64,000 nucleotides of DNA from Minisyncoccota bacterium (GCA_046350775.1 JAXLZS010000001.1:545838-609837); one strand, 5' to 3'; shown: positions 1-21,550, numbered from the stretch's first letter. Made by a program: numbers and translations. Notes: generated by a model from the letters alone, not told the origin.

Positions 1-2
1 CT

Positions 3-914
3 CAATTTACTAACAGTGCAGGATCTTGTACCATCAATCCACTCACTTCTTCTTTATCATGTAGCTCTGATATAAACCTAAAAAAGAATATTACTAAATT
101 ATCAGATGACACACCATTTGTCTTAACCGCATTAAATCTAGTAAGTACTACGACTTTAGATAAAATAAACTCTCTAGACTCTGTAATGTATAATTGGAAT
201 AATGAAAGTGATCAAGATAGTAAACATGCTGGATTCATTGCTCAGCAAGTAGAGCAACTATTCCCAGATCTAGTATCTCTAGACTCTAGAGGATACAAAA
301 CACTTAATTATGCTGGATTTGTACCATATCTAGCTGAATCAATCAAAGAACTCAACAACAAAGCACTATTTGCTAGTGTAGGATCATCAACACTAGTAAA
401 CAATACTCTCCAGACTTCTCTAAATGATTTCTCTTTATTCATATCTACTCTCAATGATAACAATCTAGTATCTACAAATCTCACCAATCTCCACGATCTA
501 TTTTCAAGTTCTTCTCTCTCAGCTATCAAATCTCTAACCAACACTCTCACACAATCAGGATTTGATCTTAATCTAAATGGAAACGCTCTCACCAATGTCA
601 AATCTATTCAGAGTATGAGTGGAAATTGGAGGGTGGGGGAGGATGGGGTGATTTATGCAAATTCATTATGTCTAAGAAATTCTTCCGGACAAAATGTATG
701 TATAAATGCTGATCAATTGCAAAGTTTGACAGGTGTTGCTCCTTCTCAAGGAGTAGTAGACACACCTCAAGAAGTCGCTCAAGACAATACAAACAGTACA
801 TCAAGTACCTCAACAAATGAAAATAATGCAAATTTGAATAGTGAAATAATAGACAATTCTTCAAATTCTTCTACGACTACAGACATAGTCACAGATACAC
901 AAAATAATCCTTAA
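3..914 (+). CDS. C-terminal fragment of a giant tail-fibre-like surface protein (5' truncated by the window edge). It contains the peptidase-S74-type intramolecular chaperone domain and an S/T/N-rich tail.
   Basis: The reading frame is open from position 3; the ORF track only shows the part from the internal Met at 186. It carries the motifs SDINLKKNI and YNWNNESDQDSKHAGFIAQQVEQLFPDLV that are typical of Pfam 'chaperone of endosialidase' / Peptidase_S74. Positions 339-646 are about 99% identical in DNA to 15408-15714. Confidence 0.7.
   Translation, partial: QFTNSAGSCTINPLTSSLSCSSDINLKKNITKLSDDTPFVLTALNLVSTTTLDKINSLDSVMYNWNNESDQDSKHAGFIAQQVEQLFPDLVSLDSRGYKTLNYAGFVPYLAESIKELNNKALFASVGSSTLVNNTLQTSLNDFSLFISTLNDNNLVSTNLTNLHDLFSSSSLSAIKSLTNTLTQSGFDLNLNGNALTNVKSIQSMSGNWRVGEDGVIYANSLCLRNSSGQNVCINADQLQSLTGVAPSQGVVDTPQEVAQDNTNSTSSTSTNENNANLNSEIIDNSSNSSTTTDIVTDTQNNP
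339..646 (+). repeat. Near-identical 308-bp tract shared with 15408-15714 (about 99% nucleotide identity), embedded in otherwise diverged paralogues.
   Basis: Direct comparison shows only about 4 mismatches, for example tctctaaccaac against tctttaactaac and aatgtcaaa against aatgttaaa. Confidence 0.85.
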
Positions 915-1076
915 TATTCAAAATGAGTTATCCACAATTGTCTTTTATAAAAGACTTGTCCTTTATAAAATTGTCGTTTATAATATATACATATAAGCAA
1001 GGGTCGCTCAACTTTATAGTTGGCGACTTTTGTTTTTATTCAAATCATCATTATTAATTTTATAAAAAAAAATATT

Positions 1077-4000
1077 ATGAATAAAGTCATAAAAATATTT
1101 CTAATCACAGCAATTGTTTTCAATGTGTCTTATTTTTCTGCTAGTGCACAGACTGGAGGATTTTGGAGTAATCTATATACAAAGATATCTTGCAGTGTCT
1201 CGAGTATTTTTTCTGGAAAAGAAAAATGTAATATTAACACTAATATTATAAATACAAATACAAAGAAAGCAAAATCTGAAGATACTTCTTTAGTTAAAGA
1301 AAATAACTCTATTCAATCAGAAACAAAAAATTTGAATACTAATACTAGTCAGATTGTGTATCTTCAAGGTCCCGCTGGTCCTGCTGGACAAAAAGGTGAT
1401 AAAGGAGAAAAGGGTGATGTGGTATATGTGAATAATCCAAACCAAAATACAAACTGGTCTAGTCTGTATGTGCCAGAATTAAAATATCAATATGTGCCGG
1501 TCGCCAGCTCTGATGCGACAAATAGAGTCACTCCAAATGCAGCTATAACTGTACAAAATACAGGGTCTTTATTTTCTACTGGTCTCTCTGGATCCGGAAG
1601 CTCTTCAGATGCTAATCATGCAAATATTTTTGGTGTAAATGCTGGATATGATGCTACATATGCCTCTGAGTCCAACTTCTTAGGATATCAATCTGGATAT
1701 CAAGCAATCAATGCCTATAACTCAAACTTCTTTGGATCAAATGCCGGCAATGGTGCAACCAATGCAAACAGCTCAAACTTCTTTGGACAAATGTCAGGAA
1801 AAGATGCTACTGATGCCTATAATTCAAACTTCTTAGGATACCAATCAGGATATGGTGCAACCAATTCATTCCACTCCAATTTCTTTGGATCATACGCTGG
1901 ACAAGGTGCCACCAACGCTGCCAACTCAATATTTATAGGAAGAAGTGCTGGTCAAAATGATACAGTAGATAATACAATCAACGGTCTCTCTTCTATACTC
2001 ATAGGCTCATACACTAATACGGGAGGATATTCTAATTCTATATTACTCGGTAATGGTACAAGCGGATCTCCAATCTCAAATACAAAAGCAAACCAATTCA
2101 TGCTTGCTCCTTCTATCACAGAATTAAATCTAAGAGGAGTTAATTACACTTTGCCTTCTACTATCGGTGCAACAGGTACAGTCCTCACAAATGATGGTAG
2201 TGGAGTACTCAGTTGGGGAGTGGGAGGGGGAGGTGCGACAGATGCTTTTGTGCAAGATGGCAACTCATTTTCTGCTCTAGCTACTCTAGGTACAAATGAT
2301 AATAACGATCTAGCATTTGAGACAAATGGTACAGAGAAGATGAGACTGACAACTGATGGAAGACTCGGTATAAATACCACAAATCCTACATCTCTTTTAC
2401 ATATATCAGTCCCAGAGACAAATACGACCTTTTCTGGTGCAGGATTAAATGATGCTGTCTTCAGTGGCACATATTCTGGTCCTGGTGATTTTGTGACAAT
2501 CACAATAACCTCGACAGACCCATCTGGAGATACCTACTCATACAGCTCATGCTGTGGTGGAGGTAATAATACTATATCTGCTGGAGTTACTCAGAGTCTC
2601 ATCTGGGGTATGTCTGTGACATTTGCTTCTGCTACTGGACATCAGGTAGGTGATAGCTGGACTTATTATTCCTCCTCTCGGGCCTCTTTAAATACGCCTG
2701 CTATTCAAGTAAAAGGGTCATCTGGAAATTATTTTATAGTCAACGCAATTGCTAATAATTCAAACTTTATAGGAGAAGAGGCCGGCTCTCAAGCTACAAA
2801 TGCTGAATTTTCAAATTTTTTTGGTTGGAGATCTGGTTATCAAGCAACCTATGCCAGCGATTCAAACTTCTTAGGTCAAAATGCTGGCTATGGTGCAACC
2901 TCTGCCTCCGCTTCAAACTTCTTAGGTTATTATGCTGGCTATCAAGCAACCTCTGCCCGCCAATCAAACTTCTTAGGACAAGTTGCTGGATATCAAGCAA
3001 CCTCTGCCAACTATTCAAACTTCTTAGGTAACTATGCTGGCTACCAAGCAGCCAATGCCTCCAATTCAAACTTCTTAGGTCAAAATGCTGGACAAGGTGC
3101 AACCTCTGCAGACAATTCAAACTTCTTCGGTCAAAGTGCTGGCTTTAATGCAACAGACGCTAACTATTCCAACTTCTTAGGTAGCTATGCTGGACAAGAT
3201 GCAACAAACGCTAACTTTTCAAACTTCTTAGGTACTGCTGCTGGATATGGCGCAACATACGCTGACCATTCCAACTTCTTTGGATCAAATGCTGGCAATG
3301 GTGCAACAGACGCTTACTATTCCAACTTCTTTGGGCCAAGTGCTGGCTTTAATGCAACAAACGCTAACTCTTCCAACTTCTTAGGTGGCAATGCTGGCTC
3401 TAATGCAACAAACGCTTACTCTTCCAACTTCTTAGGACGTGAGGCTGGCTCTGGTGCAACCGATGCTTACCATTCCAACTTCTTAGGACAGAATGCTGGC
3501 TATCAAGCCACCTATGCCAACTATTCCAACTTCTTAGGTAACTATGCTGGCTATGGTGCAACCGATGCTTACCATTCCAACTTCTTAGGTCAAAATGCTG
3601 GACGAGGTGCAACTTCTGCTTCCTATTCAAATCTATTTGGATATCAAGCAGGAAAGACATTTACTAATAATACTATAGGTGCAAACAATATCATAATCGG
3701 TACAAACATATCTCTACCGAATGGGACAGCTAATGCAATGAATATCGGTGGAGTATTGTTTGGTTCTGGATTTAACTCAGATACATCTAGCGACCCAAAT
3801 ATTACAGCTGTCACAAGTGGTAAAATTGGTATTGCTAAAATCAATCCTCAATATACTCTCGATGTGGGAAATTCTTCAACTATTGGCATCATAGCTCAAT
3901 TCACCAATTCTACAGGCTATTGTACAATCAATCCTACAAACACATCTTTGTCTTGTACTTCAGATATAAATCTCAAGAAAAATATTGTAAATATTAAAGA

Positions 4001-4574
4001 TGGCAGTGAATTTGTACTTGGAAATATAAATGCTTCTGACTCTGTATCTATACTAGACAAAATATCTGGTCTTGATCCAGTCTATTATAATTGGAAATCA
4101 GAACAAGATACTGATGCAAAGCATGCAGGATTCATAGCTCAGCAAGTGGAGCAAGTATTTCCAGATCTCGTCACTACAGATGGCAATACTAATATCAAAT
4201 CTGTAAACTATACTGGATTCACTCCATACATAGTCAATGCTATAAAAGAAATAAAAAATACTATCTCAGGTACTATCACCGCCATGAAGGGATACTTTGA
4301 GGAGATATTTACCAAAAAGATACATACAGATATGCTTTGTGTTAAAAAATCAGACGGTACAGAATTTTGTGCGAATGGTGATCAGTTAGAATCTGCTCTA
4401 AATAATATAAATGGTGGAAGTACGACAAATACTTCTATCTCATCAGGAGATGATAATCTGGAAAATCTTACCGTATCAGCATCTTCTAGTCCTTCTATAG
4501 AAGAAGAGATTTTAGATTCTTCCACAACCGTAGACACATTGATAGATACATCAGACACACAAAATAATAATTAA
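1077..4574 (+). CDS. Giant secreted tail-fibre-like protein: signal peptide, collagen-like GXY tract (GPAGPAGQKGDKGEKGD), about 25 tandem 17-aa repeats (SNFLGxxAGxxATxAxx) and a C-terminal S74 intramolecular-chaperone domain.
   Basis: ORF 1020..4574; the likely start is the ATG at 1077 (MNKVIKIFLITAIVFNVSYFSASAQ signal peptide, AAATATTATG start context). The GXY tract is at about 1366-1416. The 51-bp-period repeats lie at 1620-1960 and 2755-3660. The C-terminus has SDINLKKNI ... DPVYYNWKSEQDTDAKHAGFIAQQVEQVFPDLV (about 3962-4172). Confidence 0.75.
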   Translation: MNKVIKIFLITAIVFNVSYFSASAQTGGFWSNLYTKISCSVSSIFSGKEKCNINTNIINTNTKKAKSEDTSLVKENNSIQSETKNLNTNTSQIVYLQGPAGPAGQKGDKGEKGDVVYVNNPNQNTNWSSLYVPELKYQYVPVASSDATNRVTPNAAITVQNTGSLFSTGLSGSGSSSDANHANIFGVNAGYDATYASESNFLGYQSGYQAINAYNSNFFGSNAGNGATNANSSNFFGQMSGKDATDAYNSNFLGYQSGYGATNSFHSNFFGSYAGQGATNAANSIFIGRSAGQNDTVDNTINGLSSILIGSYTNTGGYSNSILLGNGTSGSPISNTKANQFMLAPSITELNLRGVNYTLPSTIGATGTVLTNDGSGVLSWGVGGGGATDAFVQDGNSFSALATLGTNDNNDLAFETNGTEKMRLTTDGRLGINTTNPTSLLHISVPETNTTFSGAGLNDAVFSGTYSGPGDFVTITITSTDPSGDTYSYSSCCGGGNNTISAGVTQSLIWGMSVTFASATGHQVGDSWTYYSSSRASLNTPAIQVKGSSGNYFIVNAIANNSNFIGEEAGSQATNAEFSNFFGWRSGYQATYASDSNFLGQNAGYGATSASASNFLGYYAGYQATSARQSNFLGQVAGYQATSANYSNFLGNYAGYQAANASNSNFLGQNAGQGATSADNSNFFGQSAGFNATDANYSNFLGSYAGQDATNANFSNFLGTAAGYGATYADHSNFFGSNAGNGATDAYYSNFFGPSAGFNATNANSSNFLGGNAGSNATNAYSSNFLGREAGSGATDAYHSNFLGQNAGYQATYANYSNFLGNYAGYGATDAYHSNFLGQNAGRGATSASYSNLFGYQAGKTFTNNTIGANNIIIGTNISLPNGTANAMNIGGVLFGSGFNSDTSSDPNITAVTSGKIGIAKINPQYTLDVGNSSTIGIIAQFTNSTGYCTINPTNTSLSCTSDINLKKNIVNIKDGSEFVLGNINASDSVSILDKISGLDPVYYNWKSEQDTDAKHAGFIAQQVEQVFPDLVTTDGNTNIKSVNYTGFTPYIVNAIKEIKNTISGTITAMKGYFEEIFTKKIHTDMLCVKKSDGTEFCANGDQLESALNNINGGSTTNTSISSGDDNLENLTVSASSSPSIEEEILDSSTTVDTLIDTSDTQNNN
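1905..2234 (+). repeat. Near-identical 330-bp tract shared with 12518-12847 (about 98% nucleotide identity).
   Basis: Direct comparison shows about 6 mismatches. It encodes NSIFIGRSAGQNDTVDNTINGLSSILIGSYTNTGGYSNSILLG...NYTLPSTIGATGTVLTNDGSGVLSWGVGGGG. Confidence 0.85.
2755..3660 (+). repeat. About 18 tandem copies of a 51-bp (17-aa) coding repeat, SNFLGxxAGxxATxAxx. A further 7 or so copies lie at 1620-1960, and 7 or so in the paralogue at 12228-12575.
   Basis: The nucleotide motif tcaaacttcttaggt recurs with a period of 51. The in-frame protein period is 17 aa. Confidence 0.8.
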
Positions 4575-4584
4575 TTATAAAAAT

Positions 4585-5916
4585 ATGTCACACACATTTA
4601 CATCAAAAAAAATCTTCATGCTGTTATTTTTAGGAATAATTCTTTTCAGTATTCCTCATAATTTTGCTCAGACTGTAGGTCAGTCATACGACACCAGTGG
4701 TTTTTCTCCTATTATGAATGATGCTCCATGTGTAGATTTACAATATGATCTGAGACCAGGATCTAGAGATTATTATATATATGGAAATGTGATGAAATTG
4801 CAAATGTTTTTATATCAAAATGAAATGATGGCGTATCCTCCGACTGGTCTATATGCGAATTATACTTTTAACGCTGTATTAAATTTTCAAAATTCAGTAG
4901 GATTGAGACCTACAGGTGTAGTTGATTACTATACTAGGATGGCTCTAAAAAAAGTATCTTGCCCAGCTGAAAATGTTAATACTAATTATTCAAATCAGAA
5001 TAATTCAAATAATTATAATCAAAACAACTATCAATATGTGATAAATAGTAATCCAGTAATAAATACACAAACTCTATTTTATTGCTCATTTAATGGAGTG
5101 TCATACGCATCTCAGTCTGATTACAATTATTATTGTATAAATAATAATACTCAGATTAAGTATACAGTCTCATTCAATTCTAATGGTGGAAGCTCTATAA
5201 GCTCACAGAGTATCTTAGCTGGCTACACTTTGCCTATATCATCATATGTTCCTACAAAATCCGGATACACTTTCGCTGGATGGTATACAGATACCGGTCT
5301 TACAAATCTTTATGATTTCTCAAATCCAGTGACTTCAAATATCACTCTTTATGCTAAATGGAATGAGGACAATACTGCATATACATACACTGTATCATTT
5401 CAATCTAATGGTGGTAAAAGTATAGATTCTCAATCTGTGACATCAGGCTCATATGCTATTAGACCATCTGACCCTTCAAGATCTGGCTACAATTTTGCTG
5501 GATGGTATACAGATTCTGGACTTACAAATCTTTACGATTTCTCAAATCCTGTGACTTCAAATATCACTCTTTATGCTAAATGGTCTCTTTATGACAGGAC
5601 TTCATTTGGGGCGCAAGTGAGTATGATATTATGCTCATCCTCTGTATTATTTGAGCCTGTTTACGATGACTTTTGGCAGTTGCAAAGTTATAAATCATAT
5701 TGTCTTTCAGATACTTCTGTTTCTGGTTATAATTCTACAAATCCAGGCAAATATCCTGTCTCTCGTGATTATATATTAGTCCCAGCATCAAATATAAATT
5801 TTGGAGCAATAAAAATAGGAGAGGAGTATTATAGTCTGACCGATCAATATATTTATCAGACTATCTCTGGATCTTCATATAAGAAATATCAAGTCTCACT
5901 AATGATAAAACAATAA
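4585..5916 (+). CDS. Secreted protein with an N-terminal peptidoglycan-binding-like domain and two Listeria-Bacteroides (Flg_new) repeats.
   Basis: Signal peptide MSHTFTSKKIFMLLFLGIILFSIPHNFAQ. A PG_binding_1-like motif (MKLQMFLYQ...TGLYANYTFNAVLNFQNSVGLRPTGVVDYYTRMAL). Two copies of YTVSFxSNGG...SGYTFAGWYTDxGLTNLYDFSNPVTSNITLYAKW. Confidence 0.6.
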   Translation: MSHTFTSKKIFMLLFLGIILFSIPHNFAQTVGQSYDTSGFSPIMNDAPCVDLQYDLRPGSRDYYIYGNVMKLQMFLYQNEMMAYPPTGLYANYTFNAVLNFQNSVGLRPTGVVDYYTRMALKKVSCPAENVNTNYSNQNNSNNYNQNNYQYVINSNPVINTQTLFYCSFNGVSYASQSDYNYYCINNNTQIKYTVSFNSNGGSSISSQSILAGYTLPISSYVPTKSGYTFAGWYTDTGLTNLYDFSNPVTSNITLYAKWNEDNTAYTYTVSFQSNGGKSIDSQSVTSGSYAIRPSDPSRSGYNFAGWYTDSGLTNLYDFSNPVTSNITLYAKWSLYDRTSFGAQVSMILCSSSVLFEPVYDDFWQLQSYKSYCLSDTSVSGYNSTNPGKYPVSRDYILVPASNINFGAIKIGEEYYSLTDQYIYQTISGSSYKKYQVSLMIKQ

Positions 5917-5920
5917 ATAT

Positions 5921-6343
5921 ATGTTGAATAAAAAGACACAACAAATAATAGATAGGGAAAATGAGCACTTGCCTCTTTCTGGCAATCTTTATGAGAAAAA
6001 TCAAAGAAGAATATCTCTCTCTAGATCTTTTAAAGTTATGTTTTTGTCTATCGTCAGTGGTCTCGTAGTCGTAATTGTGATTTTTGGATATATAAATAGT
6101 GCCAAAACAAAAGCAGAATCTGTCACTCAAGAAAATGTGATTTCTCAACTTAGTAAACAAATATCTTTACCAAATGAGGCTCCTGTCACTTTTTTGAGGG
6201 TTTCTGATGCAAAAAATCTTTCTCTTCAAGATGAATTTTATAAAAATGTCCAAAATGGAGACTATATTATAGTCTACAGCTCTATGGCCCTAGTTTATGA
6301 TTTTTCAAATAATAAGATAGAAAATGTTAAAACAATCAGATGA
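5921..6343 (+). CDS. Hypothetical single-pass membrane protein.
   Basis: 140-aa ORF with a hydrophobic segment FKVMFLSIVSGLVVVIVIFGYI. No recognisable domain. Confidence 0.4.
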   Translation: MLNKKTQQIIDRENEHLPLSGNLYEKNQRRISLSRSFKVMFLSIVSGLVVVIVIFGYINSAKTKAESVTQENVISQLSKQISLPNEAPVTFLRVSDAKNLSLQDEFYKNVQNGDYIIVYSSMALVYDFSNNKIENVKTIR

Positions 6344-6405
6344 TAAAGAAAAAATATTTTATCAATAATTTTTTCTACTAAAAAATCATTTATAATCATT
6401 TTTAT

Positions 6406-6434
6406 TTGCATATTATCATTATTTATGATAATAT
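6406..6434 (+). promoter_or_regulatory. Sigma70-like promoter TTGCAT-N17-TAATAT upstream of tuf.
   Basis: TTGCAT at 6406-6411, a 17-nt spacer, TAATAT at 6429-6434. The same hexamers and spacing occur upstream of the 16S rRNA gene. Confidence 0.45.
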
Positions 6435-6576
6435 TTGTGGTATTCACTTAGCTTTATCTTTAATTTGGCGGAGTGCATTTATAAGTTTATAAATTTAGTT
6501 TAATAAAGGTCCAATATTATTTCACGAATAGATGTAGAAATAACAAGACCAAATCAATAATAATCAATAAAATTTT

Positions 6577-7770
<1,194 letters not shown>

Positions 7771-7811
7771 TTATAAAAACTAATCGCTCTTTCTAATCAA
7801 GTTATAAATTT

Positions 7812-8252
7812 ATGACAGAAACAAAAAAACCAGCAACAAAAAAAACAGTAGCTAAAAAAGTTGCTACCAAAAAAGCAGTTGCTAAAAAGCCTATCGATAT
7901 AAAGACAGAAGGTGATTTTCCAAAATCTAAAGCTAAAAAAGGAGATGAAAATAAACTTCGAATTTTAGTCAAAGCTTATGAGCCTAAAGTGCTCGACATA
8001 TCTGTCAAACAAATAATTGATACAGCAAAAAGATTTGATGCGGAAATTTTAGGACCAGTTCCTCTTCCAATTGAAATCTCAAAATACACAGTAAACAGAT
8101 CAACATTTGTTTACAAAAATGCTAGAGAGCAATTTGAGATCAGAGTTCACAAAAGACTCATTGATATCATAAATCCAAACCCAAAATTGATCGAAGCTCT
8201 GACAAATTTGTCACTTCCATCAGGTGTAGACATTAATGTCAAAATGGGTTAG
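7812..8252 (+). CDS. rpsJ: 30S ribosomal protein S10 with an N-terminal Lys/Ala-rich extension of about 45 aa.
   Basis: The C-terminal 100 aa match S10 (KLRILVKAYEP...FEIRVHKRLIDI...). The N-terminus is MTETKKPATKKTVAKKVATKKAVAKKPIDIK. Confidence 0.9.
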   Translation: MTETKKPATKKTVAKKVATKKAVAKKPIDIKTEGDFPKSKAKKGDENKLRILVKAYEPKVLDISVKQIIDTAKRFDAEILGPVPLPIEISKYTVNRSTFVYKNAREQFEIRVHKRLIDIINPNPKLIEALTNLSLPSGVDINVKMG

Positions 8253-8360
8253 TATAAGATTCTTAAGATTAAGTTTTTAAGAAAGCAAAATTATTAAAAA
8301 TAAAATAAATCGACCAATGGCTCTCCTCACAAGAGAGAGTTATGTCGTTACTGAAAATAT

Positions 8361-8969
8361 ATGAAATTCATGATTGCCACAAAACAGAATATGACTCAGT
8401 TCTTTGATGATGAAGGAGTGGTGCATCCAGCTACAGTCTTGTCTGCTGGCCCACTTACTGTCACTCAAGTAAAGACCAAAGAAAAAGATGGCTATGAGTC
8501 AGTACAGGTCGCTTCTTTCCCACAAAAGAAAGAAAGAGTCTCAAAATCTGTACTTGGTCACACAGCAGAAGCTTTTAAAGTCATAAAAGAATTTAGAGGA
8601 AATGTTGGTGATTTACAAAAAGGAGCAAGTATCAATATTGATATTCTCCAAGCAGGAGACGTAGTCACATTGTCTGGTATTTCTAAAGGAAAAGGCTTTC
8701 AAGGAGTCGTCAAAAGACATGGCTTCAAAGGAGGCTGGGGACAACATGGACAAAAGCACTCACTTCGCGAGCCAGGATCAATTGGAGGAGGAGGACGTGC
8801 CGGAGGTCGTGTCGTCAAAGGAAAGAAAATGGCCGGAAGAATGGGTTCTGATAGAGTTACCCAAAAGAATGTAAAAGTACTCGATGTCGATGTAGAGCAC
8901 GGACTAATCTTAGTAAAGGGTGCTGTTCCTGGTAAAAGAGGCACAGTTATCGAAATAGTTCAAAAATAA
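8361..8969 (+). CDS. rplC: 50S ribosomal protein L3.
   Basis: MIATKQNMTQFFDDEGVVHPATV...GKGFQGVVKRHGFKGG. The start may be at 8361 or 8370. Confidence 0.9.
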   Translation: MKFMIATKQNMTQFFDDEGVVHPATVLSAGPLTVTQVKTKEKDGYESVQVASFPQKKERVSKSVLGHTAEAFKVIKEFRGNVGDLQKGASINIDILQAGDVVTLSGISKGKGFQGVVKRHGFKGGWGQHGQKHSLREPGSIGGGGRAGGRVVKGKKMAGRMGSDRVTQKNVKVLDVDVEHGLILVKGAVPGKRGTVIEIVQK

Positions 8970-8987
8970 TTTCTGAAATAAAAATAT

Positions 8988-9650
8988 ATGAAAACACAAG
9001 TATACAATCAATCAGGAAAAGCAGTAAAAGAAATTGATCTACCAGAAAATATTTTTGGCTTACCTTTTAATGGAGACTTAGTTTCTCAAGTGCTTTATAT
9101 CCAAAGAGCAAATCAAAGAGCTGGTACAGCTCACACAAAAGATCGTGGCGAAGTGGCTGGTTCAAATCAAAAGCCTTGGCAACAAAAAGGTACTGGTCGC
9201 GCAAGACACGGATCAAAAAGATCTCCAATATGGAGACATGGAGGTGTGACTCATGGACCAAGAAATGAAAAGAGTTACAAAAAAGATCTTCCAAAAAACA
9301 TGAAGACTCAAGCTCTCTTTTCTCTATTATCTGCCAAATTAAAGGATGGAAAAATACTTTTCATCGATGAGATCACAGCTACAACTTCAAAAACTAAAGA
9401 TGCAGTAGCAATAATGAAGAATATTGCAACTGTTAAAAACTTTGAAAATCTAGTTTACAAGAAAAAAGGAAATGTCTATATGACTTTTCCAAAGCTTCTT
9501 GCAAATGAAAAAAGATCATTTAGAAATCTTCCTTATGTCATGGCACATAATATGGAAGATCTAAATCCTAACGATATCGCTAATGCGAGATATCTAGTTA
9601 TTACCAATCCAGAAGCTACTGTCGAGTATCTTAATAGTAAATTAAAATAA
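8988..9650 (+). CDS. rplD: 50S ribosomal protein L4.
   Basis: QKGTGRARHGSKRSPIWRHGGVTHGP motif. Position in the operon. Confidence 0.9.
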   Translation: MKTQVYNQSGKAVKEIDLPENIFGLPFNGDLVSQVLYIQRANQRAGTAHTKDRGEVAGSNQKPWQQKGTGRARHGSKRSPIWRHGGVTHGPRNEKSYKKDLPKNMKTQALFSLLSAKLKDGKILFIDEITATTSKTKDAVAIMKNIATVKNFENLVYKKKGNVYMTFPKLLANEKRSFRNLPYVMAHNMEDLNPNDIANARYLVITNPEATVEYLNSKLK

Positions 9651-9654
9651 ATTT

Positions 9655-9984
9655 ATGACTAAAAAAGAAATCACAACAAAAGATACTAAAGATGAGAATG
9701 TCAAAGTAGAAAAAAATAATTCTCTTATAATTTCTCCAAGATTGACAGAGAAAGCTGCAAATCTTTCATCACAAAATGTTTACACATTCAATGTGAAAGA
9801 AGAGGCGACAAAGATAACTCTTGCTCAAGAAATCAAAAAAACTTATAAAGTAACTCCTATAAAGATTACTATTATCAACAATCCTCGCACAGCAGTATTT
9901 GCTAGAGGAAAGCTTGGATTCCAATCTAAATTTAAAAAAGCTTCTGTCTTTTTAAAGAAAGGAGACAAAATAAACTTAGCATAA
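9655..9984 (+). CDS. rplW: 50S ribosomal protein L23.
   Basis: 109 aa. Position between rplD and rplB. L23-like ISPRLTEKA...YTFNV... Confidence 0.8.
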   Translation: MTKKEITTKDTKDENVKVEKNNSLIISPRLTEKAANLSSQNVYTFNVKEEATKITLAQEIKKTYKVTPIKITIINNPRTAVFARGKLGFQSKFKKASVFLKKGDKINLA

Positions 9985-10046
9985 ATAATCCAACAAGAGC
10001 CGAAATACATTATGGTAAATTAAGCCGATAAATTAATTGTAAAATT

Positions 10047-10895
10047 ATGAAAAAATACAAACCAACAACCCCTTCAAGAAGAACAATGACAGGGATTGAT
10101 TACAGAAAAATCTTAACTAAAAGTAAACCAATAAAATCTCTAACAAGTGGATTTAGTCGTGGTAATGGAAGAAATTCTCACGGTCGTGTCACTACTTACT
10201 ACAAAGGTGGTGGACACAAGAGAAGCTATCGTGATGTGGATTTCAAATATAATAAATTTGATATTCCAGCAAGAATTGCTTCTGTAGAATATGATCCAAA
10301 CAGATCTGGCTTTATCGGTCTAGCTATTTATGCTGACGGAGAAAGAAGATATGTTCTTCTTCCAAAAGAGATCAAAGTAGGAGACAAATTCATCGTCTCA
10401 GAAAAAGCTGATCTGCATGTTGGAAATAGATGCATGCTAAGCAATATACCAGTAGGAACAAATGTCTACAATATTGAGATCAAAAAAGGAGCGGGTGCCA
10501 AGATGGTACGTAGTGCCGGAAGTTTTGCTCAAGTTGTCGCTCATGACAATGGCTTCACTTCTATCAAGCTACCTTCTACAGAAGTCAGAAAAGTGCCAGA
10601 CTTTTGCTACGCTTCAATCGGATCTGTTTCAAATGATGAATACAGATTGAGAGTTATCGGTAAAGCTGGTAGAAGTCGCTGGCTAGGTATCAGACCAAAG
10701 ACACGTGCCAAAGCTAAAAACCCAGTTGACCATCCATATGGAGGAGGGGAAGGAAGCCAACCAAGAGGTACAAGAAAGCCAAAGACAGCTACAGGAAAAG
10801 TTACTGGTGGTCGAAAGACAAGAAGAAGCAAGAAGTATTCTAACAGTCATATTGTGACAAGAAGATCTCGTGGCAAAAAGAACTCTAATGCTTAA
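10047..10895 (+). CDS. rplB: 50S ribosomal protein L2.
   Basis: YKGGGHKRSYRDVDF, GNRCMLSNIPVGT, HPYGGGEG motifs. Confidence 0.95.
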   Translation: MKKYKPTTPSRRTMTGIDYRKILTKSKPIKSLTSGFSRGNGRNSHGRVTTYYKGGGHKRSYRDVDFKYNKFDIPARIASVEYDPNRSGFIGLAIYADGERRYVLLPKEIKVGDKFIVSEKADLHVGNRCMLSNIPVGTNVYNIEIKKGAGAKMVRSAGSFAQVVAHDNGFTSIKLPSTEVRKVPDFCYASIGSVSNDEYRLRVIGKAGRSRWLGIRPKTRAKAKNPVDHPYGGGEGSQPRGTRKPKTATGKVTGGRKTRRSKKYSNSHIVTRRSRGKKNSNA

Positions 10896-10942
10896 TTAGA
10901 ATTTGCAAAAAAGCTATAAATATATTATTATAATTCAACAAT

Positions 10943-11380
10943 ATGCCAACAATTAATCAGTTAATCAAAAATAAAAGAAGTAAAGTCGCTAGAAAATCGA
11001 GATCTTTGACTCTAGGACAAGGCTGGAATTCTGTAAAGAATAAAGCTAATTTTTACAATTCTCCTTTTAAAAGAGGGGTTTGTACAAAGGTGACAACTAC
11101 CACTCCAAAGAAGCCTAACTCAGCTCTTCGTAAGATTGCTAGAATTAGACTCACAAATCAGCAAGAAGTCACAGCTTATATTCCAGGAGAAAAGCACAAG
11201 CTTCAAGAGCACTCAGTGGTCATGATTCGCGGAGGAAGGGTAAAAGACCTAGCCGGAGTTAGATATCACATAGTGAGAGGAAGACTTGATGCTACAGGTG
11301 TAGAAAATAGAAAGCAAGGTCGCTCAAGATATGGCGCTAAAAAGCCAAAAGCAGGAGCTGTTACAGCTAAGAAAAAATAA
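10943..11380 (+). CDS. rpsL: 30S ribosomal protein S12, displaced to follow rplB, with a Lys-rich C-terminal tail.
   Basis: [12 protein letters not shown]...[13 protein letters not shown]...VRYHIVRG. Canonically S12 heads the str operon upstream of rpsG-fusA-tuf. Confidence 0.9.
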
Positions 11381-11390
11381 TTTTCTAAAT

Positions 11391-11428
11391 AAAAACACTT
11401 CACACTTGTGAAGTGTTTTTATTTTTTC
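11391..11428 (+). terminator. Rho-independent terminator after rpsL.
   Basis: Perfect hairpin aaaaacacttcaca-cttg-tgaagtgttttt followed by a T-run. Confidence 0.7.
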
Positions 11429-11524
11429 CACAAAAATTTAAATAAATATTCTGCAATATATTATAGGTTGTGATAGAATGTAGATATGATAATGTGTCTC
11501 TATCTTATATCAAATTAAAACTTT

Positions 11525-14500
11525 ATGAATGTAAAAAAAACCACGTTTAGTTATTTTATAGTATCGTTATTTTTGTTTTCTACTCTTTTTTCTGTGGTTG
11601 GAGCTAAGAATGATAATCTCTTAACAAGATGGGATCTATTTTCTATAAATATATATTGTAAAGTTAATAGTCTTTTTAATATTAATAATCCAAAGTGTGA
11701 CTACACCAATATTCCTAAACAAATATCTGATATACAAATTCAAATAGACAATTTACCTAAAGAAAATAATACTAAAATAGTATATACAGCGACTTCTGGA
11801 GTTCAGTATATATATATCAGAGGCCCTAAAGGTGACACAGGATTACAGGGTCCAAAAGGAGACACTGTGTATATAGGCGCCAATGGTGCCACAACTACAA
11901 GTTGGGCTGATATTTGGAATAGTACAAATAGCCGAGAAATAAAATATCAATATGTGCCAGTAGCTAGTGGAGGAGGTAATGGGATCAATGGCACAAATGG
12001 AACAAATGGTACCAATGGAAAAAATGGTAAGGACGGAAATTATATAACTTTAATCACTCAAAATTCTACAAGTACAACTTATTATATTTATGATCCTAAT
12101 ACGAATTCTACTTCTACAATAGTAGTGGCTAGTCCTTATATCTCTTCAAATTCTCCAGTCACAATAGAAAATGGAAATTCTTTATTTTCAACAGGATTGA
12201 CCGGCACAGGCAGTTCGTCTTTAGCTACAAATTCTGTCTTCTTAGGAGAGGATGCCGGCAATGGTGCAACCAACGCCTCTTATTCAAACTTCTTTGGTCC
12301 TAGTGCTGGCTCAGGTGCAACCAGTGCCTTCCAATCTAACTTTTTGGGATATAAGGCTGGCCATAATGCAACATACGCTTACGGTTCAAACTTCTTAGGC
12401 ACATATGCTGGCAATAGTGCAACTGGTGCTTTTTATTCAAATTTTATTGGACAAAATGCTGGACAAAATGCAGCATCTGCTTACTCTTCCAACTTTTTAG
12501 GAGAGGTTGCCGGCAATGGTGCCACCAACGCTGCCAACTCAATATTCATCGGAAGAAGTGCTGGTCAAAATGATACAGTAGATAATACAATCAACGGTCT
12601 CTCTTCTATACTCATAGGCTCATACACTAATACGGGAGGATATTCTAATTCTATATTACTCGGTAGTGGTACAAGTGGATCTCCAATCTCAAATACAAAA
12701 GCAAACCAATTCATGCTTGCTCCTTCTATCACAGAATTAAATCTAAGAGGAGTTAATTACACTTTGCCTTCTACTATCGGTGCAACAGGTACAGTCCTCA
12801 CAAATGATGGTAGTGGAGTACTCAGTTGGGGAGTGGGAGGGGGAGGTTTTGGTGGAGGAACAACAACCATAACCTCACTTATAACTGGTGTCGCTCCCAT
12901 ATATCAAGGAGTTATATTAGACGAGCATTTCACTGGATCTTCTTTAGATACTGATACATGGTCAGCAGAAACAACTCCTACAGGAGTAACTGTTAATAAT
13001 AAATTAATAGTCTCATCAGGACAATCAGACTGGAGTAGATATATGGAATTTAAAAAGCATTATCTTTATGAGAAAGAAGACATTATTTTCGACTTTAAGC
13101 CATTAACCAAGAATTCAGGAGATGCATGGGGAATTACTCAAAATAGTTTGCTTGTATTATATAATAGCTCAATATATTTAAAAGTAGATCTTTCTAATGG
13201 TGTAAATAGCGGTAGACTTTCTATAGGAAACACAACTGCCGCAAATGAATATGGATATTCACAAGCTTTAGATTTTAATGCTGGAGACAATTTAAGATTA
13301 ACTATAAAACGTACACCGTGGAAAACTATAACAATATTAGAAAATTTGACAGATTCATCAAAACCAAAAGCATATGGTGAGTTTGATTTAAGACAATGGG
13401 GAACTCAAGGCAATTATCGTATCTCTTTTTTGGGTGGACAGCAAGAATTTACAAATATAAAAATTGATTCTAAAGTAAGAAATTATGGAGGCACAAAAGG
13501 GGTAGTATTTTTTGGAGATTCTATAACTAATGGTATTGGGGCCACTTCTGTAAGTAAAAGATGGACGGATGTTTTAATGAAAGGGCAGCAGAATCTGTTT
13601 GAAAATATGGGTATAGGTTCTTGGTTAACTGGTACCATGAATTCATCTAGAGTGACAGAATTATTGACCGGAATAAATGCTAAGTATTTATTTATAAATT
13701 TTGGTTATAATGATTTTGCGCAATATACTCCAACTTCAACTTATAGGGCAAATCTAGAAACTATCGCTACCACAGCCCAAGCTATGGGGTATACAACAAT
13801 ATTCGTTTCTCCATTTCCTAATGCTACGTACGACAGTTCATCTTATGCATCAGCTATGCAGACAGCAGCTGCTAATACTGGTAGTAAATATATAAGTATT
13901 ATTAATGCTACTTCTATTGGTGGAGTAGCAAATCCTAACTATTTATATGATGGAGTTCATCCTAATGATGAGGGATATAGAGTTATCGCTGAAGAAATAA
14001 AAAAACAAATTCCAGAAGTTTACAGTGATATGGTAAACAATATAGATTCAGGAAGTATTAAGAGTTATGATATGCCATTTGCTTTTGGTAATGAGAGTAT
14101 AGTCACTGTCGGATCTGATGGTATATTTAGACAGGCTTTAGCAGAGCAGTTCATAACAAAGAATTCACTAAGATTACAATCTATAGCATACGAGACACAA
14201 GACGGCTCAGTATCTTTATCTGGTGATATCATTCAAGGGGGATCTTTTCAACAAAAAAGTAATAATGGATTAAGGATAGGCTTTAATAATGGAGCTTATG
14301 ATAATAACGGCTCAAATATAACAATAACAAATGCTGGTACAGGAGGATCTGGGCATCCTCAACTCTTCAATACTATAAATGGCACTGAAAATATTATAAT
14401 AAATGCTTTGGCTCAAGTAGGAAAAGCAAATGCTGCTGGCTCTGTTTCCGGAAATAGAAATTTATTATTACAGACACCAATACCAAATTCTTATGATCTA

Positions 14501-16015
14501 TCTGGCAGTAGAAATATATTGATGTCATCAACAAATTTTGCCTTAAATACAGGAAGTGATAATATTTTAATAGGAGATCAATCAGGAGGACTGTTAACTA
14601 GTGGTAGCTATAATATAGCTCTTACTAGTAGACTTAATTATAATGGAGGAAGTTCTAGTTGGTCTGCTAATAATGCGGTAGGTACTATTATGATAGGTAC
14701 TCCATATGATTATTCTGGAGAAGAGCCACTGTCAAATGGAGAGGTTGTCATATCTTCTTATACAAGGTTTCAAAGAATTTATACATTTGGTACAAAGGGA
14801 GGACTTCAAACTTCTGTTGTTTGGAGACCGGGATATCAAGGAGGCATAAACTCTGCTGGAGCACCTCTTTATATACAAGGTACAAGAGCGACAGGTAATG
14901 CTGAGCCTGGTAATATAGTATTTCAGTTCTCGACACCGGGATCATCAGGAAGTGCTGTGCAAGGTACTTTTAGTGATACTCTTACTTTGTCTAGAAACTC
15001 TATATTTGCAAATAAAAACGTTGGTATTTTACAATCAAATCCTTCCTATGCTTTGCATGTAGGATCCTCAAGTATATCTGATGGTGCTACATTATTAAGA
15101 TTGGAAGATATAAATAGTACTTGTGATTTTAACGCTAATTCTGGATCTCCATCTTGTGGATCTGATATCACTCTTAAAAAAGATATATCATCTCTAGATA
15201 CATCTGATATCTTAATTAAGATAGGCAAACTTACTCCAGTGTCTTATCATTGGAAAACTCAAAAAGATGATGATATCTTAAATTATGGATTTATAGCTCA
15301 AGATGTCGGTGCACAATTTCCAGATCTTGTACATGAGGGTACATGGGTTGATGGTAGTAAAAGACTATTTTTGAATACTGGTGGGCTTATGCCTTATGTG
15401 GTTGGAGCAATCAAAGAACTCAACAACAAAGCACTATTTGCTAGTGTAGGATCATCAACACTAGTAAACAATACTCTCCAGACTTCTCTAAATGATTTCT
15501 CTTTATTCATATCTACTCTCAATGATAACAATCTAGTATCTACAAATCTCACCAATCTCCACGATCTATTTTCAAGTTCTTCTCTCTCAGCTATCAAATC
15601 TTTAACTAACACTCTCACACAATCAGGATTTGATCTTAATCTAAATGGAAACGCTCTCACCAATGTTAAATCTATTCAGAGTATGAGTGGAAATTGGAGG
15701 GTGGGGGAGGATGGAAAAATAATAGCAAAGACAATAAGGGTAGAAGGAATAGAGTTAAAAGATATAGATGGAAATTGGTATTGTTATGGATCACAAAATG
15801 GAAATCTGGTAAAAATTGGTATTGCTCCATGCTCGGATTCTGATTTAAACAATCTTCAATTTTCAAATAATCAATCCCCATCTACTCCTATTTCTACGAC
15901 AGAGCCTACAAGTACTGCTACCACCACAAATCAAGATTTAGGTACATCTTCTCCAGTAGAAGCAGATCCTTCTTCTTTAGATCCTAACACTACACCCGTT
16001 TCTGATCTTGAATAA
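11525..16015 (+). CDS. Giant (1496 aa) secreted tail-spike-like protein: signal peptide, two collagen-like GXY tracts, 17-aa tandem repeats, a ConA-like lectin/glucanase-fold domain, an SGNH (GDSL) esterase domain, a beta-rich region, a C-terminal S74 intramolecular-chaperone domain and an S/T/P-rich tail.
   Basis: Signal peptide MNVKKTTFSYFIVSLFLFSTLFSVVGA. GPKGDTGLQGPKGDT (about 11823-11870) and GINGTNGTNGTNGKNGKDG (about 11985-12047). Repeats at about 12228-12575. DEHFTGSSLDTDTWS (about 12910-13470). SGNH blocks FFGDSITNG / GYND / DGVHPNDEGY (about 13480-14040). SDITLKKDI ... VSYHWKTQKDDDILNYGFIAQDVGAQFPDLV (about 15160-15330). Confidence 0.75.
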   Translation: MNVKKTTFSYFIVSLFLFSTLFSVVGAKNDNLLTRWDLFSINIYCKVNSLFNINNPKCDYTNIPKQISDIQIQIDNLPKENNTKIVYTATSGVQYIYIRGPKGDTGLQGPKGDTVYIGANGATTTSWADIWNSTNSREIKYQYVPVASGGGNGINGTNGTNGTNGKNGKDGNYITLITQNSTSTTYYIYDPNTNSTSTIVVASPYISSNSPVTIENGNSLFSTGLTGTGSSSLATNSVFLGEDAGNGATNASYSNFFGPSAGSGATSAFQSNFLGYKAGHNATYAYGSNFLGTYAGNSATGAFYSNFIGQNAGQNAASAYSSNFLGEVAGNGATNAANSIFIGRSAGQNDTVDNTINGLSSILIGSYTNTGGYSNSILLGSGTSGSPISNTKANQFMLAPSITELNLRGVNYTLPSTIGATGTVLTNDGSGVLSWGVGGGGFGGGTTTITSLITGVAPIYQGVILDEHFTGSSLDTDTWSAETTPTGVTVNNKLIVSSGQSDWSRYMEFKKHYLYEKEDIIFDFKPLTKNSGDAWGITQNSLLVLYNSSIYLKVDLSNGVNSGRLSIGNTTAANEYGYSQALDFNAGDNLRLTIKRTPWKTITILENLTDSSKPKAYGEFDLRQWGTQGNYRISFLGGQQEFTNIKIDSKVRNYGGTKGVVFFGDSITNGIGATSVSKRWTDVLMKGQQNLFENMGIGSWLTGTMNSSRVTELLTGINAKYLFINFGYNDFAQYTPTSTYRANLETIATTAQAMGYTTIFVSPFPNATYDSSSYASAMQTAAANTGSKYISIINATSIGGVANPNYLYDGVHPNDEGYRVIAEEIKKQIPEVYSDMVNNIDSGSIKSYDMPFAFGNESIVTVGSDGIFRQALAEQFITKNSLRLQSIAYETQDGSVSLSGDIIQGGSFQQKSNNGLRIGFNNGAYDNNGSNITITNAGTGGSGHPQLFNTINGTENIIINALAQVGKANAAGSVSGNRNLLLQTPIPNSYDLSGSRNILMSSTNFALNTGSDNILIGDQSGGLLTSGSYNIALTSRLNYNGGSSSWSANNAVGTIMIGTPYDYSGEEPLSNGEVVISSYTRFQRIYTFGTKGGLQTSVVWRPGYQGGINSAGAPLYIQGTRATGNAEPGNIVFQFSTPGSSGSAVQGTFSDTLTLSRNSIFANKNVGILQSNPSYALHVGSSSISDGATLLRLEDINSTCDFNANSGSPSCGSDITLKKDISSLDTSDILIKIGKLTPVSYHWKTQKDDDILNYGFIAQDVGAQFPDLVHEGTWVDGSKRLFLNTGGLMPYVVGAIKELNNKALFASVGSSTLVNNTLQTSLNDFSLFISTLNDNNLVSTNLTNLHDLFSSSSLSAIKSLTNTLTQSGFDLNLNGNALTNVKSIQSMSGNWRVGEDGKIIAKTIRVEGIELKDIDGNWYCYGSQNGNLVKIGIAPCSDSDLNNLQFSNNQSPSTPISTTEPTSTATTTNQDLGTSSPVEADPSSLDPNTTPVSDLE

Positions 16016-16024
16016 TACCTTAAT

Positions 16025-16053
16025 TTGCAAATATTTGGTCTTTATGTTAATAT
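16025..16053 (+). promoter_or_regulatory. Sigma70-like promoter TTGCAA-N17-TAATAT upstream of rpsN.
   Basis: TTGCAA at 16025-16030, a 17-nt spacer, TAATAT at 16048-16053. Confidence 0.4.
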
Positions 16054-16187
16054 GAGTCCACTGTTTGTAATCAGTTAATTAAATATATTATTCTTTATTT
16101 ATAGATATTTATATTTGTTTATTAAGAATAATATATTTATTTTACTTGATATTCTTACAGTTTTAAAAACAATTAATATTTTTAATT

Positions 16188-16373
16188 ATGGCAAAAACGT
16201 CTGTCAAAGCAAGAGCTGCAAAGGCTCCAAAATTTTCTTCTCGTATAGTTAGAAGATGTTTTAAGTGTGGTCGAAGACATGGTTACATGAGAGATTTTGA
16301 TCTCTGTAGAATTTGTTTCCGTGAATTAGCAAACGAGGGTATGATCCCTGGTGTTAAAAAATCATCTTGGTAA
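16188..16373 (+). CDS. rpsN: 30S ribosomal protein S14, type Z (zinc-binding).
   Basis: 61 aa with CFKCGRRHGYMRDFDLCRIC. Confidence 0.9.
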   Translation: MAKTSVKARAAKAPKFSSRIVRRCFKCGRRHGYMRDFDLCRICFRELANEGMIPGVKKSSW

Positions 16374-16400
16374 TACAAGCTAAAAAAGAAATAAAAATAT

Positions 16401-16802
16401 ATGGATCAAATAGCAAACATGTTAAGTAGTATAAAAAACGCAGGACTCGTAAAAAGAGATTCTATTGTCGTTCCTCACTCTACCATCAAAGCTTCTATTT
16501 TAGAAGTTTTAAAAAGAGAAGGTTTTATAAAGACTTTTGAAATTATTGACTCTGGAAAAAACAAAAAAGAACTAAAAATAGTTCTAGAATATGTCGGAAA
16601 ACACCCAAACGTTTCTCCACGCGTAAATAATATTGAAAGAGTTTCAAAATTATCAAAAAGAGTCTATATTGGTTATAGAGATCTACACAAATTTAAATTC
16701 GGAAAAGGTTTAATAATTGTCTCTACTCCAAAAGGTATTCTTACCAATAAAGAAGCTCGTAAAGAGTTGGTCGGCGGTGAAGTATTATTTAATATCTGGT
16801 AA
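16401..16802 (+). CDS. rpsH: 30S ribosomal protein S8.
   Basis: MDQIANMLSSIKNA...GLIIVSTPKGILT...GGEVLFNIW. Confidence 0.92.
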   Translation: MDQIANMLSSIKNAGLVKRDSIVVPHSTIKASILEVLKREGFIKTFEIIDSGKNKKELKIVLEYVGKHPNVSPRVNNIERVSKLSKRVYIGYRDLHKFKFGKGLIIVSTPKGILTNKEARKELVGGEVLFNIW

Positions 16803-16811
16803 ACTAAATTT

Positions 16812-17348
16812 ATGTCAAGAATAGGAAAACAAAATCTAAATATTCCATCAGGTGTCAGCGTATCTCTTGCTGATGGTATTTTAACTGTAAAAGGACCAAA
16901 AGGTGAGCTAAAAAGAAATATTAATCAAGATCTTGTTAAGATTAATATTGAAAATGAATCAGTCACCAGTGAGCCTCTAAGAAATGACAAAGTCTCAAAA
17001 GCTTTATGGGGTACATATATGTCTCATATACAAAATATGATAGCTGGTGTTCAAAATCCATTCGAGAAAAAGCTTTTAATAGAAGGAGTTGGTTTTAAAT
17101 GGGAAGTGAAAGGAGACAAGATTCAGCTAAATGTGGGTTTTTCTCATTCTGTATTTCTAGATATTCCAAAAGAATTGACAGTTACAGCAGAAAAAGGAAC
17201 ACTTAGTATAACTGGTCTCGACAAAGAATTGGTTGCTAAATTTGCAATGCAAGTACGCAAACAAAAGCCTGGAGAGCCTTACAAAGGAAAGGGTATAAGA
17301 TATTCAACTGAAGTCTTACGTAGAAAACAAGGTAAGAAGTCTGCATAA
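16812..17348 (+). CDS. rplF: 50S ribosomal protein L6.
   Basis: MSRIGKQNLNIPSGVSVSL...LTVKGPKGEL. Confidence 0.92.
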   Translation: MSRIGKQNLNIPSGVSVSLADGILTVKGPKGELKRNINQDLVKINIENESVTSEPLRNDKVSKALWGTYMSHIQNMIAGVQNPFEKKLLIEGVGFKWEVKGDKIQLNVGFSHSVFLDIPKELTVTAEKGTLSITGLDKELVAKFAMQVRKQKPGEPYKGKGIRYSTEVLRRKQGKKSA

Positions 17349-17365
17349 TATTTAAAAGAAAAACT

Positions 17366-17731: not shown

Positions 17732-17752
17732 AATATTATATATTATAAAGAT

Positions 17753-18385: not shown

Positions 18386-18405
18386 TTAATTTAATAAATA
18401 AATTT

Positions 18406-18840: not shown

Positions 18841-18846
18841 TAAAAT

Positions 18847-20112: not shown

Positions 20113-20142
20113 TTAGACTAAAAGATAAAGTATTATAAAAAT

Positions 20143-20176
20143 AAAATCCTCTTTATTTAAGAGGATTTTATTTTTT
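20143..20176 (+). terminator. Rho-independent terminator after secY.
   Basis: Hairpin aaaatcctctt-tattt-aagaggatttt followed by a T-run. Confidence 0.65.
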
Positions 20177-20202
20177 ACAAAATTCAAAATTCGTGATATT
20201 AT

Positions 20203-21531: not shown

Positions 21532-21550
21532 TTCTGAAAAATTTTTTAAA

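Follow-up and report, generated by a model that had tools for sequence, protein, structure and literature searches.

The window analysed here, the whole of a 64,000-nucleotide (nt) stretch of DNA from a Minisyncoccota bacterium (GCA_046350775.1, JAXLZS010000001.1:545838-609837), carries three genes for proteins resembling phage tail fibres, which we call fibre genes A, B and C, and two DNA tracts that are almost identical between these otherwise diverged paralogues. Its gene content is cellular, comprising tuf, many ribosomal-protein genes, secY, map, fusA, recG and one 16S rRNA gene, and judged by these genes the window is a piece of the chromosome of a bacterium of the Candidate Phyla Radiation (CPR)/Patescibacteria (Candidatus Paceibacterota), not of a virus. 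A prophage or phage tail-fibre locus was considered and rejected because the neighbours are tuf, ribosomal-protein genes, secY, fusA and 16S rRNA, and a viral origin is unlikely because searches of IMG/VR (2.9 million viral contigs) returned distant S74 relatives only and no close ones.

Three fibre genes and two shared tracts

The fibre genes and the features within them are as follows.

3..914, plus strand: fibre gene A, 3' part only, its frame open from the window start, with a Peptidase_S74 domain, module 2 and an A-type Cys-Cys tail
340..646, plus strand: tract 2, gene A copy (module 2), 304/307 bases (99.0%) the same as 15408-15714
624..646, plus strand: G-rich 23-mer AATTGGAGGGTGGGGGAGGATGG at the 3' edge of tract 2, A copy (C copy at 15692-15714)
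1077..4574, plus strand: fibre gene B, 1165 amino acids (aa), from Pfam, repeat analysis and a database match
1905..2234, plus strand: tract 1, gene B copy, 326/330 bases (98.8%) the same as 12518-12847, spanning the last stalk repeat and neck module 1 to a GVGGGG linker
11525..16015, plus strand: fibre gene C, 1496 aa, between rpsL (S12) and rpsN/rpsH (S14/S8), from Pfam and its neighbours
12270..12515, plus strand: strain-variable repeat block in C
12518..12847, plus strand: tract 1, gene C copy, from base-by-base comparison
15161..15334, plus strand: Peptidase_S74 core of C, beginning at the catalytic SDITLK (residue 1213), Pfam match at residues 1213-1270
15408..15714, plus strand: tract 2, gene C copy (module 2), residues 1295-1397 of C

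The part of gene A inside the window matches Pfam PF13884 with an E value of 7e-15, has its SDINLK motif at residue 22 (nt 66), and has a complete orthologue of 1628 aa with the same 3' architecture in L113, a 612-kb scaffold of a related species. Gene B encodes, in order, a signal peptide, a collagen-like GXY run (1368-1421), a first repeat array, neck module 1, a unique distal domain, a second repeat array (~2750-3713), an S74 domain (SDINLK at nt 3960, residue 962) and a tail. Its product is a 100% match to a database protein (P0008, 'tail fiber domain-containing protein [Candidatus Paceibacterota bacterium]') on a 614,345-bp contig, and no close orthologue was found among 5.8 billion proteins. 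Gene C runs from a signal peptide through GXY runs, a repeat array, module 1, an unknown domain, a GDSL/SGNH esterase domain (~13502-13999) and further domains to S74 (15161-15334), module 2 and the tail, and has orthologues in P0001 (96% aa identity) and, more distantly, P0002 (79% over 72% of the query). PDB sequence searches with C matched only GDSL esterases, with little beyond the GDSL domain. The stalk in both B and C consists of arrays of 17-residue SNFxG repeats (51 nt).

All three genes score well above the PF13884 gathering cut-off of 22 bits (A 55.5, B 53.7, C 52.0), and in each the S74 domain starts with the SDxxxK motif, a Ser-Lys dyad that is invariant in a 20-sequence alignment and was defined as the catalytic motif of an S74 fibre group in the relevant passages of PMC10769870. 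By analogy with S74 proteins that have been characterised, the C-terminal piece should be released through self-cleavage at the SDxxxK serine once the trimer has formed. An AlphaFold2 model of the released piece of C has pLDDT values of 70-87 over residues 10-90 and is poor elsewhere, with module 2 predicted, at low confidence, to be helical. The top Foldseek matches of this model are the MyRF ICA structure 7dc3 (E 6e-5, probability 1.0) and the endosialidase chaperone 3gw6 (probability 1.0), with TM-scores that are low owing to the poor remainder of the model. Matches to PHROG tail-fibre profiles cover the S74 region and stop where module 2 starts. A signal peptide, an S74 domain and homology to tail fibres suggest that these proteins form trimeric surface fibres, which may bind the envelope of prey or of a host.

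We detected the tracts by self-BLASTN of the whole window followed by base-by-base comparison, and calculated synonymous divergence (dS) by the Nei-Gojobori method. Self-BLASTN aligned 1639-2234 with 12252-12847 (E 2e-173) and 311-646 with 15379-15714 (E 7e-155), recovering both tract pairs of the initial annotation, which had noticed the near-identity between diverged paralogues and had placed the first base of tract 2 at 339, one position before the 340 found here. The surrounding coding sequence is as different as it had claimed, and the edges are sharp: 5' of tract 1 the 51-nt repeat array gives 16-21 matches per 30 bases (~62%), and 3' of tract 1 and on either side of tract 2 ungapped identity is at the random level. 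The positions of the tracts within the fibres also agree with that annotation. Tract 1 lies at the transition from stalk to distal region, containing the last repeat and the neck module and followed by unrelated distal domains, and tract 2 starts 82 residues past the SDxxxK catalytic serine, which puts it within the C-terminal chaperone piece predicted to be released.

The few differences between copies are not evenly shared. All four differences between B and C in tract 1 are specific to B, and all three between A and C in tract 2 are specific to the C gene of the window. Tract 1 has a dS of 0.036 (three synonymous changes and one non-synonymous) against 1.24 in the upstream repeats, and tract 2 a dS of 0.043 (three synonymous, none non-synonymous) against 1.49 in the S74 flank and 1.13 in the downstream tail, so that dS is ~30-fold lower within the tracts than outside. 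This contrast, ~0.04 inside as opposed to 1.1-1.5 outside, places the similarity at the level of DNA, so that its cause is transfer of DNA and not selection at the protein level.

Concerted evolution of module 2 and exchange at module borders

Scaffold L113, whose ribosomal-protein genes have ~90% nucleotide identity to those of the window, is syntenic with the window over the A-orthologue, a PG_binding/Flg_new gene, a 140-aa gene, tuf to L2, S12, a fibre gene (product P0044), S14 and S8, and so allows the paralogues to be compared by genome and by locus. Within L113, the A-orthologue and the fibre gene in the slot between S12 and S14 are 100% identical over ~585 nt (1392-1976 vs 14267-14851), in a tract running from the catalytic Ser codon to the very …WRVGEDG border at which tract 2 of the window ends. 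Over the 307 nt of module 2, identity is 99.0% between A and C of the window and 100% between the A-orthologue and slot fibre of L113, compared with 76.5% in all four cross-species pairs. The orthologues show that module 2 was already part of both A and the slot fibre in the ancestor shared with L113. The paralogues thus group by genome rather than by locus, which is the mark of recurrent interlocus gene conversion, and for tract 2 conversion between fibre A and the S12-S14 slot fibre is recurrent. The initial annotation had proposed recent homologous exchange among the fibre paralogues, and our comparisons support this, strongly so for tract 2 through this cross-species test of concerted evolution.

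Gene B is missing at the equivalent position of L113, where window 1054-4561 corresponds to a precise one-gene indel. The 3' end of A with its downstream spacer (892-939) resembles B 4552-4599 at 75% identity, which suggests that B was gained by insertion or by unequal exchange anchored on the gene ends.

A sister strain is represented by two contigs from two JGI metagenomes, L005 (32.6 kb) and L006 (15.9 kb), which are 98.6% identical to window 6399-26015 and include a C gene that has both tracts, flanked by the same unique sequences. The strain-variable repeat block of C has five units in the window as opposed to four in L005 and L006, with ~62% identity in any register, whereas the remainder of C is 99-100% identical between the two strains; no donor of the block was found, the best matches being 72-74% identical. 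Upstream of tuf (window 1-6399 vs L005 1-2083 and L006 1-2639) the strains have unrelated genes, a BNR-like repeat protein and a 242-aa PG_binding protein standing in the sister strain in place of A, B, and the genes for a 443-aa and a 140-aa protein; the more distant L113 keeps the window arrangement there, minus B. Divergence between the strains is also patchy, with no mismatch over 7.5 kb (window 18500-26015 vs L005) and 0.2-3% elsewhere, a mosaic of the sort that recombination between strains typically leaves, which indicates that homologous recombination is active in the population.

Comparison with such population variants, which the initial annotation had suggested, found alternative repeat blocks, bodies and tails meeting at the same borders in strains and species. 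Breakpoints recur at ~12270, 12515, 15408-15418 and 15714. The right end of the strain-variable block is the left edge of tract 1, and the homology between C of the window and its distant orthologue in L007 stops at 15418, the left edge of tract 2. The order S12, fibre, S14 is kept in the three related lineages with contigs long enough to tell, and the fibre body differs by lineage: it is of a GDSL type in the window, L005 and L007, of a beta-propeller type in L113 and of a third type in L114. Module 2 and the tail that follows it are common to the window, L113 and L114 and absent from L007; B, like L007, has no module 2. On this pattern of homology, C of the window is a chimera in which an L007-like body and S74 domain are joined at ~15408-15418 to an L113/L114-like module 2 and tail. 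L007 carries a second fibre gene after its slot fibre, beyond which the contig ends.

Module 1 is a widespread building block: of 180 homologues retrieved, at least 83 contain it, at 35-100% aa identity (median 60%) and in up to four copies per protein. The ~60 copies we inspected all come after a repeat array and are succeeded by a Gly-rich linker and unrelated sequence. If B and the allele of the sister strain are set aside, the closest relative of C's module 1 is that of the distant orthologue P0002 (86% aa identity), any other homologue reaching at most 80%. C therefore seems to retain its original module and to be the probable donor, and it is likely that tract 1 passed from C to the lineage-specific gene B.

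Two further sequences bear on the use of these modules. The distant C orthologue P0002 (L007 2531-7399) has, before its repeat array, a segment NGNSFSALATLGTNDNNDLAFETSGTEKMRLTT... that is homologous to window 2235-2390, where it follows module 1 of B, so the same module is used at a different position. A full module 1 with 72% aa identity also lies at 10001-10327 of L042 (OY781965.2, 4.18 Mb, labelled Bacteroidales) in an open reading frame (ORF) of 1443 aa, and could reflect horizontal transfer or a mislabelled or chimeric assembly.

Proposed mechanism and rival explanations

We consider it very probable that the tracts arose by non-allelic homologous recombination, that is, interlocus gene conversion, between the fibre paralogues. 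What is visible are end products, and the direction of transfer, its non-reciprocity and the enzymes, which would include RecA, are presumed; a gene for the RecG helicase, which we count on the side of recombination, lies in the window. Heteroduplex or gap repair would run only while the paralogues can be aligned, and the tracts would stop at module borders (the ends of the neck module, of the canonical S74 domain and of module 2) because alignable homology stops there. With 1.0-1.2% nucleotide divergence in the tracts, the latest conversions would be about as old as the split of the co-occurring strains. Larger blocks, among them the repeat array, the entire fibre body and the tail at the 3' end, have been exchanged between strains and species at these same borders, so that the conserved modules probably act as homology anchors for a cassette-like shuffling and are themselves homogenised. 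A likely role of the tracts is to preserve the anchors where flanking arrays, bodies and tails are exchanged.

This shifts part of what the initial annotation had proposed. It had seen the tracts as a possible source of fibre diversity; since conversion affects the conserved neck and a portion of the chaperone piece that is released, the tracts themselves homogenise and do not diversify the mature tip, and the idea holds for the flanking blocks that are swapped at the same borders. The likeness to antigenic-variation loci that it had drawn is an analogy only, there being no silent cassettes here.

Several observations weigh against gene conversion or limit its reach. The sequences 3' of both tracts cannot be aligned, so a two-sided conversion must stop exactly where homology ends, and gene B is known from one assembly only. 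Because B has no orthologue, recurrence and a single transfer are inseparable for tract 1, where a single recent module transfer, made when B was built, fits equally well. Between C of the window and C of L005 there are 8/307 differences in tract 2, five of them at sites specific to the L005 allele, compared with ~8/2400 in the flanking part of C, so the simplest single-event model fails here; the A copy of tract 2 has no unique change and is intermediate between the two, and the excess could come from independent conversions in each strain. Finally, a scan of 72 GTDB loci that contain sequences like module 1 gave tracts with identities of 90% or more, but most of these were repeats inside a gene or matches of orthologues between genomes, and inter-paralogue islands were not shown to be common.

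An unlikely but coherent alternative to interlocus conversion is a set of single recent module transfers, in which B was newly built with C's neck module and the overlap of A and C is a remnant of nested replacements of the 3' end. The lineage-specific B, missing at the L113 position and lacking an orthologue, fits this account, as do the 3' tract edges that adjoin non-homologous sequence and the chimeric state of C itself at ~15408-15418. For tract 2 it founders on the comparison with L113: both ancestral copies had module 2, yet identity is 99-100% within genomes and 76.5% between them, which calls for repeated homogenisation. An artefact of assembly or polishing, with the reads of one paralogue collapsed onto or correcting the other or with repeat paths mis-resolved, deserves attention because the source is a metagenome-assembled genome, because our assessment rests on assembled contigs, and because contigs of other assemblies often break at the repeats of these genes. 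C with both tracts is nevertheless present in two independent JGI assemblies, and the distant orthologue in L007/L008 has the same order of C-left, module 1 and C-right. Moreover, the copies are not strictly identical (four B-specific sites and three A/C sites), alternative paths through direct repeats would release a circle instead of producing the linear order seen, and a tract of this kind also occurs on the independent 612-kb scaffold of another species. The L2-S12-C and 443aa-140aa-tuf junctions are matched by seven short contigs of independent ENA and Logan assemblies, five at 100% and two at ~98%. Judged on these assembled sequences, an artefact is very unlikely. Strong purifying selection on the protein modules or the nucleotides, acting without exchange of DNA, is scarcely credible. 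It would accord with the conservation of module 1 across the family (65-80% aa identity) and of the G-rich 23-mer at the module 2 end between species, but we rejected it on the dS contrast, ~0.04 inside against saturation outside, and on the four-way comparison of module 2, in which orthologous copies are just 76.5% identical; family-wide copies of module 1 are also much more diverged than the B/C pair.

The G-rich edges invite the thought of programmed variation, a cassette exchange for host range or antigenic variation in which the G-rich motif would be a signal like pilE G4 or Chi; we find this quite improbable. The four most G-rich 20-mers of the 64 kb (14-15 G in 20 nt) are indeed the 3' edges of the four tract copies (624-646, 2214-2234, 12827-12847 and 15692-15714), and the 8-mer GGGGGAGG occurs five times against 0.36 expected, its fifth occurrence being in the 16S rRNA gene. 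The 23-mer at the module 2 end uses rare G-ending codons and is conserved base for base in L113, which shares no longer run with the window anywhere in module 2 and whose tract ends at the same motif; in addition, the slot fibre is radically different between related species. Yet the 23-mer is absent from the module 2 end in L114, the motif copy bordering tract 1 codes for a poly-Gly linker of an ordinary kind and reads differently in L005, and Gly linkers after module 1 showed no enrichment of GGG codons across the family (9.9% vs 10.3%). The end of homology alone accounts for the edges, and a function of the motif as a DNA signal is unlikely. All the genes are full-length ORFs of expressed type without silent cassettes; a system of the pilE/pilS, vlsE or MgPa type was rejected on the grounds that B and C are complete ORFs with signal peptide and S74 end and that the A orthologue is complete at 1628 aa. 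A diversity-generating retroelement was likewise rejected, the tract differences not being adenine-specific and the ORFs scanned, which cover all but ~56.9-63.5 kb, containing no reverse transcriptase. A broader proposal would have this clade of Paceibacteria maintain an exchange system of host-attachment fibres, with a hypervariable S12-S14 slot and satellite genes upstream of tuf, with the modules and the G-rich 23-mer as anchors or signals for body swaps, and with the chaperone kept identical between co-resident fibres; as an account of the locus it strikes us as improbable.

Searches for more copies of the tracts gave little. Exact 30-32-mers of tract 1 in genome contigs and of tract 2 in metagenome contigs had no match, and hence no extra copies or variants came by this route. 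A degenerate IUPAC pattern for both tracts found nothing in a metagenome contig collection although L005 and L006 match the pattern, and this collection may lack those samples or not handle such patterns. A homologue search with a 287-aa fragment of B gave only proteins about as long as the fragment and did not recover B.

Chromosomal context, described relatives and significance

Gene C interrupts a scrambled ribosomal-protein cluster. Over window 6577-24338 the order is tuf-S10-L3-L4-L23-L2, S12, fibre C, S14-S8-L6-L18-S5-L15-secY-map-?-S7-fusA, and the block S19-L22-S3-L16-L14-L5 (33837-37346) lies ~18 kb beyond the rest. The 16S rRNA gene (53615-55137) is followed in the remaining 8.9 kb by protein-coding ORFs and two tRNAs only, with no 23S gene, and the rRNA genes thus appear to be unlinked. 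Between B and tuf, 4585-5916 encodes the 443-aa protein, which has PG_binding and Flg_new (Listeria-Bacteroides repeat) domains and an internal 128-nt repeat (5234-5361 vs 5456-5583, 86-88% identity); short-read contigs of other samples break in this gene, and a second Flg_new protein is encoded at 30467-31765. At 26294-29448 lie a 928-aa protein with motifs of TraG/VirD4-type coupling proteins and then a DUF559 protein. Perfect or near-perfect palindromes at 11387-11424, 16073-16146, 20137-20175, 26230-26257, 29468-29557 and 46918-46953 are probably terminators; a promoter and terminator scan of the window gave nothing usable. Exact-protein look-ups with C, the 443-aa protein, EF-Tu and P0008 returned no match.

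Interlocus conversion and concerted evolution of surface-protein and other paralogues are familiar from Neisseria opa/pil, the MgPa repeats of Mycoplasma and tuf duplicates. The tracts described here share with them sharp-edged islands of identity, grouping by genome and dependence on residual homology; they differ in that there are no silent donor cassettes, that the converted modules are conserved and not those of the tip, and that the organism is an ultra-small CPR bacterium. The phenomenon itself is therefore well known in surface-protein families and had not previously been described in this group. At the level of the released piece, the closest structures are those of the endosialidase and MyRF ICA chaperones (3gw6, 7dc3), which are alike in the PF13884 match, in the catalytic Ser with a Lys five residues on, and, over the first ~130 residues, in the predicted fold. 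A and C differ from them by the addition of module 2, of ~100 aa and predicted to be helical, and then of a small beta unit with Cys residues and a tail of low complexity.

Among evolutionary mechanisms already described, the nearest is the exchange at conserved motifs in the adhesin genes of T-even tail fibres, where gp37/gp38 modules are shuffled (Tetart et al. 1996/1998, as cited in Trojet et al. 2011, PMC3157838). As the cited sections describe them, those exchanges also occur in or beside the most conserved motifs flanking variable segments, with Gly-rich motifs at the borders and an S74 chaperone at the fibre end. The present case differs in taking place on a cellular chromosome, with ribosomal-protein genes and 16S rRNA, and between paralogues of one genome instead of co-infecting phages.

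The closest described proteins are the mosaic adhesive trimer (MAT) fibres of Bdellovibrio bacteriovorus, specifically the S74 subgroup (Caulton et al. 2024, PMC10769870). In the relevant parts of that paper, MATs are chromosomal, multi-copy, phage-tail-fibre-like surface fibres of a bacterium living on other bacteria, and have a signal peptide, a long repetitive stalk, variable tips and a C-terminal S74 domain with SDxxxK. They are defined by a beta-rich domain, conserved and ~130 aa long, right after the signal peptide (PMC10769870), and the likeness to the fibres described here rests on the other features. In the passages searched, the paper uses the word 'recombination' just in the Methods, for strain construction, and mentions neither conversion tracts nor concerted evolution. 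By tblastn, the terminal motif of module 1, YTLP...VLTNDGSG.LSW, was matched in Bdellovibrionaceae loci. Unlike MATs, the present fibres are found in Patescibacteria, have a stalk of 17-residue SNFxG repeats with collagen-like runs, and in one case sit in a ribosomal-protein cluster. We found no link of Patescibacteria with endosialidase or S74 fibres in the literature searched.

CPR/Patescibacteria are believed to spend their lives attached to other microbes, and how they recognise their hosts is mostly unknown. The locus described here gives a Paceibacteria lineage several tail-fibre-like S74 surface fibres, one of them with an SGNH esterase domain, and these are concrete candidates for host-recognition proteins. 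In a genome of ~0.6 Mb, the fibre genes evolve like phage receptor-binding proteins, through module exchange at conserved borders, gain and loss at the strain level and ongoing conversion, and the locus shows homologous recombination at work in such reduced genomes. Treating such genes as simple orthologues risks mis-assembly or misleading phylogenies. Were the fibres, improbable as this seems, to form a maintained exchange system, the trimerisation chaperone would be kept identical between co-resident fibres, and whole fibre bodies could be swapped.

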